A stretch of DNA of 41,616 bases from Nitrospirota bacterium (GTDB lineage Bacteria > Nitrospirota > Thermodesulfovibrionia > Thermodesulfovibrionales > UBA9159). The stretch lies in assembly GCA_037442785.1 (NCBI GenBank), contig JBBIPQ010000004.1, positions 1 to 41,616 on the forward strand, given 5' to 3'. A program made the translations under genes and the position numbers. Below the pieces are notes generated by a model that did no database searches, was not told where the DNA came from, and saw only the letters and a list, made by a program, of their open reading frames with translations. Shown here in pieces: positions 772 through 41,320 of the stretch. How positions within the stretch are numbered: the first letter of the stretch is position 1; each line of letters opens with the position of its first letter.

Positions 772-1539
772 TCAGGTGCTCCTTGACATCATCCTCAGGG
801 TATGAACAAGCCCTTCAATAAGGAATATAATAGATTCAACATCAAGGAAGTTTCCTGTAATCCTGTCAAAGACAATATTCAATGAGGAAGGGAATTCATT
901 ATCCCCCTCTGAGTAAAGGATCAGTATCCTTATCTTTGGAAGGAGATCGATCATCCAGGCTCTATCAGCCGGGAAGCCAGAAATAGGTCTTGCACCTATC
1001 ATTTCGAGATATGGGTTGATCCTGTCCATAAGGTTATCGAATAGTTCTCTGAGGGGTTCCTCACAATCCCTTTTAAAAGTGGATGATTTAACAAGGCCTC
1101 CTTTTAATTCAGAAAAGGACATCCATTGCCCTGTAAACTCTCCTTTTCCCTTGTTTCTTATATAATGGAGGAGAAGGATACTGATCCATTTGTTACGAGG
1201 CTCGGGGATGATATTGCCTTTTTTATCAATCAGGTAGTTTATCCCGATGCAATGAATCTCAATGGAATCATCCCTTATTCTGGCACCGAGTCCAGGGGCA
1301 GCCAGAACAATATCTATGTCCTCTAACTCCCCCTTTAGTGACCTTATCAACTCATCCCTCCAGTCACCTTGTTTCAACATTGATTGTATCTCATTGACCT
1401 TTGAAGGGTGAATATATTTGCACTCACTGAGTCCTTCACGACTTGTCTTCAGGTTGATCGCAAAGGCCATACATGTTCTCTGAGGGCACTCTCCGCAGTT
1501 TGTCTTTGGCAAAAGTTTGTATATCTCTAAAGGATTCAA
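772..1539 (-). CDS. DUF3786-like protein with an N-terminal CFeSP/RnfB-type putative 4Fe-4S binding domain
   Basis: 255-aa ORF. The N-terminus LPKTNCGECPQRTCMAFA resembles the 'putative Fe-S cluster' domain of corrinoid Fe-S protein and RnfB. The remainder resembles DUF3786. It is tightly packed in a four-gene minus-strand operon. Confidence 0.65.
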   Translation of the reverse strand: MNPLEIYKLLPKTNCGECPQRTCMAFAINLKTSREGLSECKYIHPSKVNEIQSMLKQGDWRDELIRSLKGELEDIDIVLAAPGLGARIRDDSIEIHCIGINYLIDKKGNIIPEPRNKWISILLLHYIRNKGKGEFTGQWMSFSELKGGLVKSSTFKRDCEEPLRELFDNLMDRINPYLEMIGARPISGFPADRAWMIDLLPKIRILILYSEGDNEFPSSLNIVFDRITGNFLDVESIIFLIEGLVHTLRMMSRST

Positions 1540-1542
1540 AGA

Positions 1543-1740
1543 CTATCTTCCTTTATGCATCCTGATGAAGTTTTCAATTGACCTGTCATAGGTCCTTTCA
1601 AAGTCCCTGTTGAAGAAACAGGCTGGGAGTTCTCCATTCTTCCTGTGATAATGCAGGCATTCACAACAACGGTATTTTCTTGAACATGGCTCATAGGTGC
1701 AATTACAGTATCTTCTGTTTGTCTCCATTATACATTCCAT
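1543..1740 (-). CDS. Small cysteine-rich protein (DUF6485-like)
   Basis: 65-aa ORF with 8 Cys ([21 protein letters not shown]...LPACFF). SD GAGGTGA lies upstream. There is a 3-nt gap to the next gene. Confidence 0.6.
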
Positions 1741-1784
1741 AGGATCACCTCACATATGTTTTTACTTATATATAGTTTATCACA

Positions 1785-2414
1785 TCAGGAAAGGATGGGA
1801 AAGGGTCTGGTCTTTTCCCTGTAAATAAAGAGGAAAAAATCATAGGGAATCATGTCATGCCTTAAAGAAACAAAGGGGGAGAGGTTCTCAATTGCGAAGC
1901 TCAGTATATCCTTAGGTCTTAGATAGAAGAGCTCATAGTCCTTCCTGGGGCTATAAGAAGACAGGGCATTAAAGACAAGGGCCTTTTTGCAATGACTGAA
2001 GAGTTTGATAAGGGTTGATCTTATTAGGTCCTCAAGGCCGTTTACCTTCAGATTGAAGACACCACAAATAAATATGAAGTCATAGTCTTCAGTCAGTTCT
2101 TCCTTTTCTATATCGAGAACCCTGAAGTCTACTCCCGGATATTTGTCCCTTGCAAGATTAATAAGGTTCTCATTTATATCAATTCCGGTATACCTTACCT
2201 CAATTCCCTTATCCCTCAGAAATCCGTAAAAGTCCCCCTTTCCGCATCCAAAGTCCAGTACGTTGCAATGCCTGATATCTCCCACCTCAAGCATTGCCTC
2301 ATAGTGCATCTCTTGTCCCTCTTTTGTCCATCTAACCGCTTCGGGTCTGTCTCCGAACAGCATGAGATTTTTATTGAAAAAAGAGATTATGTATTCCTTC
2401 GATAGGTTATTCAT
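1785..2414 (-). CDS. Class I SAM-dependent methyltransferase
   Basis: 209-aa ORF with the SAM-binding motif VLDFGCGKGDF. First gene of the operon. TATAAT lies 5 nt upstream of the ATG and there is no SD. Confidence 0.8.
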   Translation of the reverse strand: MNNLSKEYIISFFNKNLMLFGDRPEAVRWTKEGQEMHYEAMLEVGDIRHCNVLDFGCGKGDFYGFLRDKGIEVRYTGIDINENLINLARDKYPGVDFRVLDIEKEELTEDYDFIFICGVFNLKVNGLEDLIRSTLIKLFSHCKKALVFNALSSYSPRKDYELFYLRPKDILSFAIENLSPFVSLRHDMIPYDFFLFIYREKTRPFPILS

Positions 2415-2419
2415 GGGAT

Positions 2420-2425
2420 ATTATA
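2420..2425 (-). promoter_or_regulatory. -10 box (TATAAT) 5 nt upstream of the methyltransferase ATG; candidate leaderless promoter
   Basis: Plus strand attata at 2420..2425 is TATAAT on the minus strand. The spacer is atccc, then ATG 2414..2412. No purine-rich SD. Confidence 0.45.
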
Positions 2426-2579
2426 GTATATTTTATGGGTGTCACTATCTTTGCTTTCTCCCCTGTAGCGGTAGAAGTATTACGGTAGACCGGCCCATAG
2501 CAATAGACTTCCAGCAAGTAGCAAAGGCTTAGTGGAACTTAGATTTGTTCCCGTTCGATCAACAAATTTAGATCGGAAA

Positions 2580-2609
2580 TTGACAGCCTCACTGATTTTG
2601 TGTTATTTT
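2580..2609 (+). promoter_or_regulatory. Putative sigma70-type promoter for the small zinc-ribbon gene
   Basis: TTGACA at 2580..2585, followed about 17-18 bp later by TGtTATTTT (extended -10-like) at 2601..2609. Confidence 0.35.
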
Positions 2610-2721
2610 AAAAAGTTTCATTTTGGACGTTAAAACTGGGACAGTCAAAGCATAGATGATACCAATCGGTTATTGCCTTTGAAAGGCATACTAATTCCAT
2701 AAGAGAAAGGAGGTCAGATAA

Positions 2722-2880
2722 GTGGCAGAAAAGGGTAAGTCAAAGACGGATGTGACAGCAAGGGCAGAGAACAAGGTAAAGGCACAGATCTGTCGCAACT
2801 GTGGTAATAAGATCGATGTTGTGATGGCAGTTTCTCCCTCTGGCAAGAAAAGGATGAGGCGTGTCTGTTGCGGTGAATAA
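2722..2880 (+). CDS. Small (52 aa) lysine/arginine-rich zinc-ribbon-like protein, GTG start
   Basis: Not in the ORF track because it is under 60 aa. AAGGAGG SD at about 2708..2714, GTG at 2722, translation VAEKGKSKTDVTARAENKVKAQICRNCGNKIDVVMAVSPSGKKRMRRVCCGE, stop TAA 2878..2880. It is followed by a GC hairpin terminator. Confidence 0.55.
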   Translation: MAEKGKSKTDVTARAENKVKAQICRNCGNKIDVVMAVSPSGKKRMRRVCCGE

Positions 2881-2895
2881 AGAAAGAATAATGAA

Positions 2896-2921
2896 GGGGC
2901 AGATTCCTGCCCCTAAATTTT
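2896..2921 (+). terminator. Rho-independent terminator
   Basis: Stem GGGGCAG (2896..2902), loop ATTC, stem CTGCCCC (2907..2913), then TAAATTTTGTCTCTT. Confidence 0.6.
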
Positions 2922-2936
2922 GTCTCTTAGGTAGAG

Positions 2937-3677
2937 ATGTCTCAGCCTGTATCAGAAGAAGTCACCCTTGATAGTATAAGAGATATAAGGCTATACCAGC
3001 CCAGGATTGGTTATCGGTTTTCTGTTGATTCCCTTTTGCTTTTCAATTTTATTAAACTTCACAGGATTGGCAGTATCGCTGATATCGGAGCTGGAAGTGG
3101 CATTATCGGTCTTCTCCTTGCAAAGAGATATGAGAAGTCAAGGGTTGTTTTGTTTGAGATTCAGCACAAACTATCTGAACTTGCCCTGAAGAATATCGAG
3201 ATAAATGCCCTCCAGGATCGCGTTACAGTATATAATGTAGATGTGAAAGAGATCCCCTCTCTTTACCCATCCTTCTATTCTTCATTTGATGTTGTTGTAT
3301 CAAATCCACCTTTTAGAAAGATAAGATCTGGCCGAATCAATCCATACGAGGAAAAGGCGCTGGCCCGTCACGAGATTGCTATTGACCTTTCAGGACTCTT
3401 AAAGATAGCAGACTTTCTTCTAAGGCCAAGAGGAAGGTTGTTCCTGATATACCATCCTTCAAGGCTCTTAGAGATTATTGATGGGTTAAGGAAGAAAGGT
3501 ATTGAGGCAAAGAGACTGCAATTTGTCCACTCCAGCATTCAAACCGAGGCGAAGATGGTACTTATTGAGGGGGTAAAATCTGGCAGGGCCGGGCTAAGGG
3601 TAGAGAAACCATTCTTTATTTATAACGAGATAGGTGGATATACTGAAAAGATGAGGTCTATATATGGGGATCTTTGA
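2937..3677 (+). CDS. SAM-dependent N6-adenine methyltransferase, tRNA1(Val) m6A37 methyltransferase (YfiC/TrmN6)-like
   Basis: 246 aa with the SAM motif DIGAGSGIIG and the catalytic NPPF motif (VVSNPPFRK). Length and layout match the YfiC family. Confidence 0.65.
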   Translation: MSQPVSEEVTLDSIRDIRLYQPRIGYRFSVDSLLLFNFIKLHRIGSIADIGAGSGIIGLLLAKRYEKSRVVLFEIQHKLSELALKNIEINALQDRVTVYNVDVKEIPSLYPSFYSSFDVVVSNPPFRKIRSGRINPYEEKALARHEIAIDLSGLLKIADFLLRPRGRLFLIYHPSRLLEIIDGLRKKGIEAKRLQFVHSSIQTEAKMVLIEGVKSGRAGLRVEKPFFIYNEIGGYTEKMRSIYGDL

Positions 3678-5331: not shown

Positions 5332-5742
5332 ATGGACAGATTCGTAAAAAACTTTATCATCACGAGCATCGTTTATCTTGCTATAGCCTCAATACTTGGT
5401 CTCTTGATGCTTGGGCATCCTTCTCTAATGTACATGAAGTTTATTCATTCCCATCTCAACATGCTCGGTTGGGTCTCGATGATGATCTTTGGGGTTGGGT
5501 ATCATATACTGCCAAGGTTTACTGGAAGGCCCCTCATGTATCCTAAACTTGGTGAACTGCATTTCTGGCTTGCAAATATAAGCCTAATCGGCATGCTTTT
5601 ATTTTATCTCCTTGGCACGGTTAATACTGAAGTCTCCATATTCAGGAGTCTTTCAACCGTATTTGGGCTGATTCAGGCAGTATCGATATTCCTTTTCTTT
5701 TATAATATGCTTGCGACGATGCTCACTAAGACAGAATCATGA
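5332..5742 (+). CDS. Small 4-TM membrane protein with heme-copper-oxidase subunit I-like His motifs
   Basis: 136 aa, four predicted TM helices. FIHSHLNMLGWVSMMIFGVGYHILPRF resembles a helix pair of CcoN/NorB-type subunit I. AAAGGAGG SD. Function unknown. Confidence 0.5.
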   Translation: MDRFVKNFIITSIVYLAIASILGLLMLGHPSLMYMKFIHSHLNMLGWVSMMIFGVGYHILPRFTGRPLMYPKLGELHFWLANISLIGMLLFYLLGTVNTEVSIFRSLSTVFGLIQAVSIFLFFYNMLATMLTKTES

Positions 5743-15741: not shown

Positions 15742-16650
15742 ATGATATTCATAGCAGGTGGCACTGGCTTTATTGGTAAGAATCTCTTGAAGGCATTGAA
15801 ACAGGGTAATTATGTGGTCAGGTGTCTTGCAAGGACAGAGGAGAGGGCCGAACTCTGCAGAAAGACAGGCTTTGACGCAGTTACAGGGGATATAACCGAA
15901 AGGGAGAGTCTCAAGGGGAAGCTCGAAGGCGTAGAAATGGTCGTTCACCTTGTTGGCATAATCGAAGAACAGGGCGGGATGACCTTCGAGAAGGTCCATG
16001 TGAAAGGGACAAGGAATCTTGTTGATGAGGCAAAGAAGGCGGGTGTCAGGCATTTCTTCTTTCAATCAGCCCTTGGTGCTTCCTTGGAGTCTGACGCAGT
16101 TTACCAGCGGACAAAGGCCGAGGCAGAAGAGATTGTTAAGGATAGCGGGATACCATATACAATCTTCAGACCTTCTCTTGTGATTGGTGAAAAGGATGGT
16201 TTTACAGAGAGGTTGAAGGAATTGGTAAGGGTTGGCCCGTTTGTGCCAATCCCTGGAACGGGTAATGGGAGGTTTCAGCCGATATTTGTTGAAGACTGGG
16301 TCAGATGTTTCCTTTGTATTATAGGAAGGGATGAGGCCATTGGCAGGATCTATGAGTTCGGCGGCCCTGAACATCTGACTTATAATGAGCTTGTGATGCA
16401 ATTAATGGAAGTCATGAATATAAAAAAGCCATTGGTTCATATACCAGTCTCCATTGCAAGGTTCGGAATCCCCTTTATCGGGATCGGGAATAAGATCGGT
16501 AGGATAATCGGAAAGAAGATACCCACTGTTACAGCAGAGCAATTGATGCTTCTTGAGAGGGACAATATCTGCGATATCGATTCTGTTAAGAGACTTTTTG
16601 GGTTTGAGCCGCTCAGGTACAAAGATGCCTTAAGATTATTTATCAGGTGA
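15742..16650 (+). CDS. NAD(P)-binding SDR (atypical, NDUFA9/NmrA-like epimerase/dehydratase family)
   Basis: 302 aa. N-terminal Rossmann motif IFIAGGTGFIGKNL. Confidence 0.75.
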   Translation: MIFIAGGTGFIGKNLLKALKQGNYVVRCLARTEERAELCRKTGFDAVTGDITERESLKGKLEGVEMVVHLVGIIEEQGGMTFEKVHVKGTRNLVDEAKKAGVRHFFFQSALGASLESDAVYQRTKAEAEEIVKDSGIPYTIFRPSLVIGEKDGFTERLKELVRVGPFVPIPGTGNGRFQPIFVEDWVRCFLCIIGRDEAIGRIYEFGGPEHLTYNELVMQLMEVMNIKKPLVHIPVSIARFGIPFIGIGNKIGRIIGKKIPTVTAEQLMLLERDNICDIDSVKRLFGFEPLRYKDALRLFIR

Positions 16651-17063
16651 TGAGATTCGAGGTTTTAGATATATCGGGAGATGTAGGGATCAGGGCCTTT
16701 GGCAAAAGCCTTGAGGAGTTATTCGTAAATGCCGCCTCAGGGATGTATAATCTGATTACTGACACAGAGGCAGTGGAGAGGAAAAGGGACATGGATGTGG
16801 AGGTGAAAAGCCATTCTTTAGAGGGCCTTCTTGTATCATGGCTTAATGAACTGATCTTTCAGTTTGATACATATGGATTCATAGGAAGGGATATCAATAT
16901 CAGGGAATTTTCTGAAAATGAGATAAAGGCCACTCTGACAGGTGAGGAGTTTGATGAGTCAAGACACGACAAAAGACTGCTCATTAAGGCAGCCACATAT
17001 CATCAATTAAAGATCGAGAGGGTTGGAGAGGAATGGAAGGCAGAGATTATCTTTGATATCTAA
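16650..17063 (+). CDS. Archease (RtcB activator/chaperone)
   Basis: About 137 aa. [16 protein letters not shown]...[10 protein letters not shown]...W.AEIIFDI matches the archease fold signature. ATG 16650 overlaps the upstream TGA (TGATG). The ORF track starts one codon earlier, at GTG 16647. Confidence 0.85.
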
Positions 17064-17077
17064 GGGAGGTGATCTTT

Positions 17078-18523
17078 ATGACATTAGAGGGACTGAAGAG
17101 GATAGATGAAACAAGGTTAGAGGTCCCTGTGGGTTACAGGGCTGGTATGAGGGTCAGGGGCATAATCTTTGTGGATGATCTCCTTGAAAAAGAACTGGAG
17201 AAACAGTCAATCGATCAGGTTGCCAATGTGGCAACCCTCCCTGGTATAGTGGGGGCATCCCTGGCAATGCCAGATATTCACACCGGCTATGGGTTTGCGA
17301 TAGGGGGAGTGGCAGCCTTTGATCTTAAGGAAGGTATCATCTCGCCAGGAGGTGTTGGTTATGATATAAATTGAGGGGTCAGACTCCTCAGGAGCAACCT
17401 CACCAGGGAAGATGTTGCTCCGAGGATTAAGGACCTCGTCGGGGTCCTTTACAATGAGATACCATCGGGTGTTGGCTCAAAGGGAAAGATACGTCTTGAT
17501 CCAGACAGTGAAAGAAGGCTATTGATTAAGGGTGCAAGATGGGCTGTTGAGCAAGGCTATGGAGAACCCTCGGACCTTGAAAAGATCGAGTCAGGGGGCT
17601 GTATAGAAGGGGCTGATCCCTCCCTCATAAGCAATAAGGCTTACGAGAGGGGAAGGGCACAACAGGGCACACTCGGATCAGGGAATCACTTCTTAGAGAT
17701 ACAGTATGTTGAGGAGATATACGATGAAAAGATTGCCACTGCCCTTGGACTTTTCAGAAATCAGGTAACCATAATGATCCATACAGGTTCAAGGGGGTTT
17801 GGACACCAGGTCTGCACAGACTTCCTTGAGGTAATGGAAAGGGCAGTAACAAAGTACAATATCTCCCTTCCTGATAAGGAGCTTGCCTGCGCCCCCTTTG
17901 GAAGCCCTGAGGCTCAGGATTATCTGTCTGCCATGAGGGCTGCGGCAAATTATGCCTGGGCAAACAGGCAGTGCATCATGCACTGGACGAGGGAGGCCTT
18001 TTTAAAGGTATTCAGTGCTACTCCGAGGGAGCTTGGGATGTCCCTTATCTATGATGTGGCTCACAATATAGCAAAGATCGAGGAGCATGATATCGATGGG
18101 AAAAGGATGAAACTCATTGTTCATAGAAAAGGGGCAACAAGGGCATTTCCGCCAGGACATCCTGAACTTCCTGACATTTATAAGCCAGTAGGACAGCCTG
18201 TCCTTATCCCTGGTGACATGGGGAGGGCCTCATATGTCCTTATTGGGACAGATAGGGCAATGGAGGAGACCTTTGGCTCAACCTGTCATGGTGCTGGACG
18301 GGTCATGTCAAGGCATCAGGCCATTAGACAGGCAAAAGGGAGGGCCATATGGAGAGAAATGGAGGATAGAGGCATAATCGTGAGGTCAGCAGGGAGGGAG
18401 ACCCTTGCAGAGGAGATGTCAGAGGCGTACAAGGATATCTCAAATGTGGTTGATGTGGTTCACAGGGCTGGCATATCAAAGAAGTTGGCAAAGCTGAGGC
18501 CAATGGGCGTTATTAAGGGTTGA
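17078..18523 (+). CDS. rtcB: RNA-splicing ligase RtcB, with in-frame TGA (17372..17374) at the conserved metal-binding Cys; candidate selenoprotein
   Basis: ORFs 17069..17374 and 17522..18523 are in the same frame (offset 453 nt). The intervening 49 codons are stop-free and read [37 protein letters not shown], which is RtcB-like. The sequence around the stop is [17 protein letters not shown], versus the conserved GYDINCGVRL. The C-terminal part carries RtcB His motifs ([20 protein letters not shown]). GGGAGG SD lies 8 nt before ATG 17078. Confidence 0.8.
17385..17426 (+). promoter_or_regulatory. Candidate bacterial SECIS hairpin downstream of the RtcB TGA
   Basis: 5' arm 17385..17398 (tcctcaggagcaac) pairs with 3' arm 17414..17426 (gttgctccgagga), giving 13 bp with a single bulged A at 17390. 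The 15-nt loop ctcaccagggaagat contains GGG. The stem starts 10-11 nt after the TGA and the loop starts about 24 nt after it. Confidence 0.5.
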
Positions 18524-41226: not shown

Positions 41227-41320
41227 GGAGAGGTGCCGGAGTGGTTGAACGGGCGCGACTGGAAATCGCGTGTGGGGTCTAAAAGCCCCACCGTGGGTTC
41301 AAATCCCACCCTCTCCGCCA
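41227..41320 (+). tRNA. tRNA-Ser (anticodon GGA), class II with a long variable arm and encoded CCA
   Basis: Folded by hand. Acceptor GGAGAGG/CCTCTCC, D-stem CCG/CGG with GG in the loop, anticodon stem CGCGA/TCGCG with loop CT-GGA-AA, variable arm GTGGGG/CCCCAC, T-arm GTGGG-TTCAAAT-CCCAC, discriminator G, CCA. Confidence 0.9.

Follow-up and report, generated by a model that had tools for sequence, protein, structure and literature searches.

Why does an otherwise uninterrupted gene for the RNA ligase RtcB carry a UGA stop codon exactly where this protein family has its invariant metal-binding cysteine (Cys)? This question is raised by a 41,616-nt stretch of DNA (contig JBBIPQ010000004.1 of assembly GCA_037442785.1; Nitrospirota, Thermodesulfovibrionales, UBA9159), the whole of which is referred to as the window in the following. 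Here, rtcB lies downstream of an archease gene, and we consider it very likely that codon 99 of this archease-rtcB operon's ligase gene, UGA, would be decoded as selenocysteine (Sec) by means of SelB and a selenocysteine insertion sequence (SECIS), the identity of the residue being deduced from sequence comparison.

The rtcB frame is open from position 17069, and its translation confirmed what had been proposed in an initial reading of the letters without database searches (the sequence-only reading): an RtcB frame with a single internal stop, TGA 17372..17374, ahead of the terminal TGA at 18521..18523. The same reading let the frame start at GTG 17069; the likely start is instead ATG 17078..17080, located 6 nt after the Shine-Dalgarno sequence GGGAGGTG, which results in a protein of 481 residues with the UGA as residue 99. 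It also counted 49 stop-free codons after the TGA. These are indeed open, but the number was too low, as all 382 codons 3' of the UGA are free of stops. Translated with Cys at the UGA, rtcB gives an end-to-end match to PF01139 (E = 2.8e-181), RtcB residues 47-481 covering model positions 1-426 of 426. In the alignment to Pyrococcus horikoshii RtcB (PDB 1UC2/4DWQ/4ISZ; E = 3.6e-191), the UGA stands opposite Cys98, in agreement with the numbering given in the sequence-only reading, and the metal ligands D95, H203, H234 and H329 as well as the guanylylated H404 are identical.

Cys98 of the P. horikoshii enzyme ligates both Mn2+ ions (Mn1: C98, H234, H329; Mn2: D95, C98, H203), and mutation of the equivalent Cys in E. 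coli, Pyrobaculum aerophilum and human RtcB leaves the enzyme dead for ligation (2023 review, PMC10630183). In the window, the codon for this family-wide invariant residue is UGA. Decoding as Sec would give a chemistry analogous to that of Cys98, with a selenolate for the thiolate, yet a residue other than Cys. The window protein shares domain, ligands and archease adjacency with the characterised enzymes of P. horikoshii (PH1602), E. coli and human (RTCB), and differs from them by the UGA where those carry the invariant Cys (Cys98/Cys78/Cys122). To our knowledge, every characterised RtcB has Cys at this metal-binding position.

We compared the 80 loci most similar to the window rtcB, taken from species-representative genomes. 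Among them, five Thermodesulfovibrionales/Nitrospirota metagenome-assembled genomes (MAGs) carry TGA at this codon (73-84% protein identity), five other close loci carry TGC or TGT (69-77% identity), and every more distant homologue is a Cys form. The question of whether close orthologues have TGA or TGC/TGT here, which the sequence-only reading had posed, is thus answered by the presence of both, at exactly the same codon. The same genome collection was scanned with a degenerate DNA pattern that encodes G-[YF]-D-I-N-TGA-G, and 120 matches are listed, a number that represents a lower bound. RtcB with TGA at this codon accounts for 118 of the 120, corresponding to at least 118 species genomes from about six phyla; the other two, both from Saccharibacteria (L102, L156), were discarded as chance matches that are not RtcB. 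TGA carriers in Nitrospirota include Ca. Magnetobacterium casense and one complete chromosome. Many were found in Desulfobacterota (Syntrophia, Syntrophorhabdia, Desulfobacteria, Desulfarculaceae), and those in Acidobacteriota comprise Vicinamibacterales and others, with two complete chromosomes. Further carriers belong to Binatia, Gemmatimonadales and Eisenbacteria, in addition to one Polyangiaceae MAG and one Planctomycetota MAG. Complete genomes with TGA-RtcB include CP070669.1 (Nitrospirota), OZ252293.1 (Vicinamibacterales) and OZ245365.1; the accession of Ca. Magnetobacterium casense is JMFO01. The pattern-matched genes show about 100 clean codons before the TGA and 382-383 after it, or run off the contig end.

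Homologous loci with TGC or TGT at the same codon number 73, all of them distinct. When 151 complete sequences are placed in a rough neighbour-joining tree, at least nine switches between the TGA forms (hereafter Sec forms) and the Cys forms are required, with Cys forms nested inside Sec clades. Such Sec/Cys pairing at exactly one codon is typical of selenoproteins. A third state was observed in a Thermodesulfovibrio sp. (L028; CAZTLF010000009.1, ~1456-3000), where an intein is located exactly at the Cys98 equivalent (..GVGYDIN followed by CLSPDTKVLTEHGY..), so that in close relatives the same codon is Cys, putative Sec or an intein insertion site. Intein-containing RtcB proteins are covered by NCBIfam NF038162, their intein sitting at exactly this Cys; they represent a protein-splicing insertion and not recoding, and the window gene has no intein.

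In order to judge the TGA within the species, we made use of the 98-residue RtcB stub, which is found on nine contigs including the window, and compared seven Logan contigs from seven runs. All seven independent assemblies have TGA at codon 99, are 98.5-99% identical to the window over rtcB and show the same gene order. The possibility of a base-call error, which the sequence-only reading had advised to examine in the reads, is settled by these seven independent read sets. That the TGA is a sequencing or assembly error for TGC/TGT is refuted by them and retains practically no probability: this explanation had been a prior possibility only, and TGA is found in seven contigs from seven runs as well as in at least 118 other species genomes. 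A related MAG has a gap at the exact spot (L003; DOHC01000061.1, UBA8922), where 'NN' and ~33 missing nt span the Sec/Cys codon at about position 420 of the locus, which looks like an assembly/scaffolding gap.

Of the 44 sites that vary among the strains, 38 fall on third codon positions. Behind the UGA, this applies to 31 of 37 within-species variable sites, and in the 49 codons between the UGA and TTG 17522 to six of eight; over the whole of rtcB, the strains differ by seven amino-acid changes, mostly conservative ones. The third-position bias on both sides of the UGA indicates that translation continues behind it in the frame used ahead of it.

These data bear on the idea that rtcB is a pseudogene created by a nonsense mutation. 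The internal stop itself would fit, and so would three of the 118 listed TGA genes (L119, L146, L148), which have local frameshifts or an N gap downstream and may be pseudogenes or MAG assembly errors. The other 115 are otherwise intact or clean to the contig end. The same single stop at the same codon with clean frames in at least 118 species of several phyla, the third-position variation before and after the stop (31/37 sites after it), the complete set of catalytic residues and the retained archease partner all speak against decay, as the sequence-only reading had argued from the window's clean frame. We regard the pseudogene explanation as effectively refuted, with only a minimal residual probability.

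Alternatively, the split could be genuine: the 98 N-terminal residues and a C-terminal part with an initiation of its own would then be two polypeptides that together form the active enzyme. Gene callers do predict 98 aa and 333 aa in the window, and many such stubs are present in public databases. However, no start or ribosome-binding site lies close behind the TGA, the first in-frame start being TTG 17522, 50 codons further on. Initiation there would remove the conserved blocks GVRLLR and PSGVGSKG, although the 49 codons before it are under coding constraint as described above (6/8 variable sites), and the metal-binding residue would be missing from both pieces. We therefore consider a split enzyme highly improbable. 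Reassignment of the genetic code was likewise rejected. TGA is the commonest ordinary stop in the window and ends 20 of 40 large genes, which shows that it is not a general sense codon. No other gene in the window is convincingly interrupted in this manner, and the recurrence of TGA at the same codon, in at least 118 other species genomes and in seven assemblies of the species itself, is far more than chance would give.

A SECIS had been suspected in the nucleotides following the UGA, and a hairpin is indeed found at a fixed distance after it and is absent from the Cys forms. In the window, its sequence is CCUC-A-GGAGCAACCUC / ACCAGGGAA / GAUGUUGCUCC-GAGG, comprising 16 stem positions, a bulged A (17390), a C.U mismatch (17399/17413) and the 9-nt loop ACCAGGGAA (17402..17410), with a UGA-to-loop spacing of 27 nt. 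The minimum free energy (MFE) is -31.5 kcal/mol, giving z = -3.65 against dinucleotide shuffles. A second test relied on synonymous recoding, with each gene's own usage supplying the codons: of 100 sequences recoded in this way, not one folds as well as the window sequence (z = -4.5). For the Sec set, the mean recoding z was -1.27 vs -0.32 for the Cys set (p = 0.0025), and values below -2 were reached by 29% of the Sec but 4% of the Cys sequences. The window itself has T at 17413, hairpin position 42 (the C.U mismatch, in an Asp codon), whereas all seven sister assemblies have G (a C-G pair, Glu codon), meaning that the hairpin of the window strain is slightly weakened. An outer helix around the hairpin is part of the MFE fold; 82.7% of its cells are paired, with no compensatory change.

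RNAalifold applied to all 116 Sec sequences together returned no consensus. Since the set contains three or more hairpin types as well as two pairing registers, the clades were analysed separately. In 28 Nitrospirota Sec sequences, a fixed structure pairs 84% of cells, compared with 42-61% when the partners are slid. Compensatory changes were found at 6 pairs (17 cells) vs 2.4 +/- 1.0 in shuffles, 0/500 of which reached as high a value; as two pairing registers are present side by side, this figure errs on the low side. At pair 18-51, to give one case (numbered from the U of the UGA), 18 sequences have C-G, seven have G-C and one has U-A. Outside Nitrospirota, the element has a short stem (e.g. 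GCGCUCA-GGUC-UGAGC(C)GC) with the loop starting from +25. In the 88 non-Nitrospirota Sec sequences, 81% of the cells of its five stem pairs are paired vs 36% in the Cys forms, and 80 of the 88 loops begin with G (GGUC 37, GGUU 12, GGGU 9, GUGU 8). Over all 116 Sec sequences, the loop of the best simple hairpin starts at +24 to +26 in 73, while the Cys forms are scattered. The GGUC loop of Desulfobacterota and Acidobacteriota RtcB presumably resembles the loop of E. coli fdhF. In these two phyla (L081-L199), positions +17..+37 after the TGA encode the peptide ..RSGLSR.. by CGC UCA GGU CUG AGC CGC; Cys forms read ..RTNLT.. or similar at this stretch. The SECIS stem and its GGUC loop appear to dictate the amino-acid sequence after the Sec position.

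The published model of bacterial SECIS (bSECIS) elements comprises a loop of 3-9 nt, a stem of 4-16 bp, a UGA-loop distance of 16-37 nt and an MFE <= -7.5 kcal/mol, and additionally asks for G in the first two loop positions (PMC13188914). The non-Nitrospirota RtcB element fits this model, and the window hairpin lies within its limits on size (loop and stem), spacing and energy, which are three of its four criteria. With the bSECISearch consensus or fdhF-type SECIS, the window element has in common a hairpin inside the open reading frame (ORF) just after the UGA and a loop spacing within 16-37 nt. The Nitrospirota-type element differs by its longer stem (~16) and its 9-nt purine-rich loop, often without G at its first two nucleotides. 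Overall, we regard the window hairpin as a SECIS-like element whose structure has good support and whose loop departs from the canonical form; it would be the binding site of SelB.

In the mechanism that we propose, Sec-tRNA(Sec) made by SelA would be delivered by SelB tethered to the hairpin just 3' of the UGA in the mRNA. The product would be an RtcB of 481 residues with a selenolate in place of the thiolate on both Mn2+ ions, beside the guanylylated His, and this enzyme would be expected to carry out the usual GTP- and archease-dependent ligation of 3'-phosphate and 5'-OH RNA ends. As the reason for Sec at this site we favour protection: the equivalent Cys is the documented oxidation-sensitive weak point of RtcB, and selenolates resist irreversible over-oxidation. 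A lower pKa or an altered metal preference would be alternative benefits. In line with such a weak point, the equivalent Cys is oxidised in the aerobically purified archaeal enzyme, and in human RtcB it is protected by PYROXD1, with thioredoxin regulating the redox state of the complex (PMC10630183, PMC12263435, PMC10653391).

Several points weigh against decoding as Sec. Chemically, a soft selenolate on hard Mn2+ is unusual. The hairpin tests are partly confounded by shared ancestry and coding constraint. The window loop ACCAGGGAA breaks the loop-G rule, whereas about half of the 28 Nitrospirota-type loops, as read from the alignment, do have the G; a minority of accepted bSECIS elements break this rule as well (PMC13188914). 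A scan of the hairpin region against Rfam gave no SECIS or other family, only chance matches with E > 1, and the Rfam models apparently miss SECIS elements of bacteria. Furthermore, self-cleavage has been reported for an engineered P. horikoshii RtcB U98 (Haruna et al. 2014, PMC4150793), into which Sec was introduced via UAG and EF-Tu with no SECIS involved, so that Sec at this site is not automatically benign. This construct concerns the same residue of the same family, whereas the window-type genes occur naturally, have a hairpin downstream of their UGA and are conserved in a large number of species. Finally, the 41.6-kb window contains no sel gene or tRNA-Sec.

Searches with tblastn (E. coli SelA, SelB and SelD) and ARAGORN likewise found none of these genes in about 200 RtcB loci. 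ARAGORN detected 23 tRNA-Sec genes among SelA loci, which demonstrates that the method works and that the Sec genes are simply unlinked to rtcB. These loci stem from a SelA search seeded with Aquifex aeolicus and E. coli SelA and repeated with two Nitrospirota SelA so found. Among the matches listed, several MAGs of Thermodesulfovibrionia/Nitrospirota have SelA, and SelB accompanies it in four loci. The sole overlap is a Syntrophorhabdus sp. MAG with SelA and TGA-RtcB (CAZXBI01; L289/L177), but as the listed SelA loci and TGA-RtcB loci are both arbitrary subsets, low overlap says little. A Desulfobacterales MAG (JAOZUU01; L220/L038) has SelA together with a Cys-RtcB; compared with CAZXBI01, it indicates that the Sec machinery alone does not determine the RtcB form. 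In the Nitrospirota SelA/SelB loci L223/L282, L283 and L301, ARAGORN found no tRNA-Sec. According to a review, selC can lie inside selB in Nitrospirae, whose selB/selC arrangements are a topic of PMC13188914, so that an unusual Nitrospirota tRNA-Sec may have escaped the program. Deltaproteobacteria are documented as rich in selenoproteins (PMC5029168). A search of the rtcB flanks for a second selenoprotein, listing in-frame TGAs with redox motifs, yielded noise only; the one promising case turned out to be two adjacent genes, cobA/hemD followed by ksgA.

Could the UGA be read through with a standard residue, i.e. Cys, Trp or Gly inserted by a suppressor or near-cognate tRNA? Cys might even come from the Sec machinery itself at low selenium. 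This explanation gains from the fact that we infer the inserted residue from sequence, from the missing consensus G in the window loop and from the destabilisation of the archaeal enzyme by engineered Sec98. On the other hand, TGA as the commonest true stop (20/40) argues against general suppression or a code change, recoding is limited to one codon at which every homologue has Cys, the hairpin is fixed in position and has a canonical GGUC-type loop in most phyla, and the taxa concerned are Sec users. Moreover, a single base change to TGC or TGT gives Cys and has happened repeatedly, so that keeping TGA implies a benefit. In our assessment, readthrough with a standard residue is improbable, and decoding as Sec remains the preferred explanation. 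Those refuting conditions of the sequence-only reading that could be examined all turned out in its favour.

Sec at a catalytic metal is known from FdhA (Mo/W) and [NiFeSe] hydrogenase (Ni). Like RtcB, both show a Sec/Cys pair at the metal ligand and a SECIS within the ORF, and the benefit suggested for them, a site guarded from irreversible oxidation (PMC13188914), is the one proposed here. They are redox enzymes, whereas RtcB, an RNA ligase that works by nucleotidyl transfer, has two Mn2+ ions and involves no net redox chemistry.

In the open full-text literature (subscription journals and most supplementary tables being outside our reach), we found no report of a natural Sec-RtcB; the single relevant paper was the one on the engineered P. 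horikoshii U98. Neither RtcB nor any other ligase is among the 119 prokaryotic selenoprotein families and subfamilies of a review from May 2026, by its own account the most comprehensive prokaryotic inventory (PMC13188914). The suggestion of the sequence-only reading that RtcB is not known among the classical bacterial selenoprotein families thereby holds within the open literature. RtcB and other ligases are also unmentioned in the main texts of BSepDB (111 families) and deep-Sep, and among the RtcB models of NCBIfam (June 2026), which include exceptions for inteins, there is none for a selenoprotein. A protein-database search with the full-length query returned Cys forms for all of the best 120 matches. 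With the N-terminal 98 residues as query, the best 120 matches were almost all stubs of 97-98 residues, labelled 'hypothetical protein', 'tRNA-splicing ligase RtcB' or 'RtcB family protein'. Their quantity indicates that the Sec forms are in the public data, truncated by annotation, just as gene callers cut the window rtcB into two pieces. TGA-RtcB therefore appears to be a putative selenoprotein family that is undescribed in the checked catalogues and the open literature.

More broadly, it is likely in our view that RtcB represents a large, phylogenetically broad and unrecognised selenoprotein family, in which Sec was switched often, each lineage has its own SECIS, and oxidation protection is the likely driver. 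If so, it would be the first selenoenzyme to work on the ends of nucleic acids and would hold the first selenolate on a di-Mn2+ centre in a non-redox reaction. Sec would have been gained and lost many times at one codon, each lineage writing its own SECIS into the following peptide, and the oxidation weakness of RtcB would be met by Sec here and by the dedicated protein PYROXD1 in animals. A widespread family would be added to the catalogue of 119, and selenoproteins would reach from mostly redox chemistry into RNA repair and ligation. The Sec and Cys forms would amount to a natural experiment on the residue that makes RtcB oxidation-sensitive; a comparison of natural Sec/Cys orthologues at 80-85% identity would bear on protection or metal preference of the di-metal site. 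For annotation, many genomes of Nitrospirota, Desulfobacterota and Acidobacteriota are likely to be recorded as having no RtcB or a defective one, because the genes are cut into a stub of 97-98 aa and a short C-terminal piece. The Nitrospirota-type hairpin would also provide a well-populated example of departure from the apical-loop consensus rule.

The features of the window are collected in Table 1. The archease stop TAA (17061..17063) lies 14 nt ahead of the rtcB start, with the Shine-Dalgarno sequence coming straight after it, and the archease is called as 137 aa in the seven independent assemblies; the two genes probably form one operon. Across the relatives, 97/116 Sec loci and 52/73 Cys loci have archease as a neighbour of rtcB, which places the TGA genes in a normal functional context. 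In the window, the adjacent archease would be consistent with a working RtcB enzyme.

Table 1. Coordinates of the archease-rtcB region and of the RNA gene detected in the window.
Feature	Position	Strand	Basis
Archease gene (RtcB activation cofactor)	16650..17063	+	Pfam PF01951, E = 1.1e-42
Shine-Dalgarno sequence of rtcB, GGGAGGTG	17064..17071	+	Read from sequence; 6 nt before ATG 17078
Full-length rtcB, 481 codons plus terminal TGA	17078..18523	+	Translation through the internal UGA; PF01139
In-frame UGA, codon 99, proposed Sec codon	17372..17374	+	Alignment to P. horikoshii Cys98; equivalents E. coli Cys78, human Cys122
SECIS-like hairpin, stem starting 10 nt after the UGA	17385..17426	+	Folding, covariation
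Possible outer helix around the hairpin, GGGGUC (17375..17380) with GACCUC (17432..17437)	17375..17437	+	Weakly supported
tRNA-Ser (anticodon GGA), sole RNA gene in the window	41227-41320	+	ARAGORN and Rfam

Away from rtcB, a 136-residue ORF at 5332-5742 (+) matches positions 319-401 of the 436 positions of PF00115 (cytochrome oxidase subunit I) with 34.8 bits, a value that equals the gathering score. This ORF may be what is left of a gene, or it may encode a small membrane protein.

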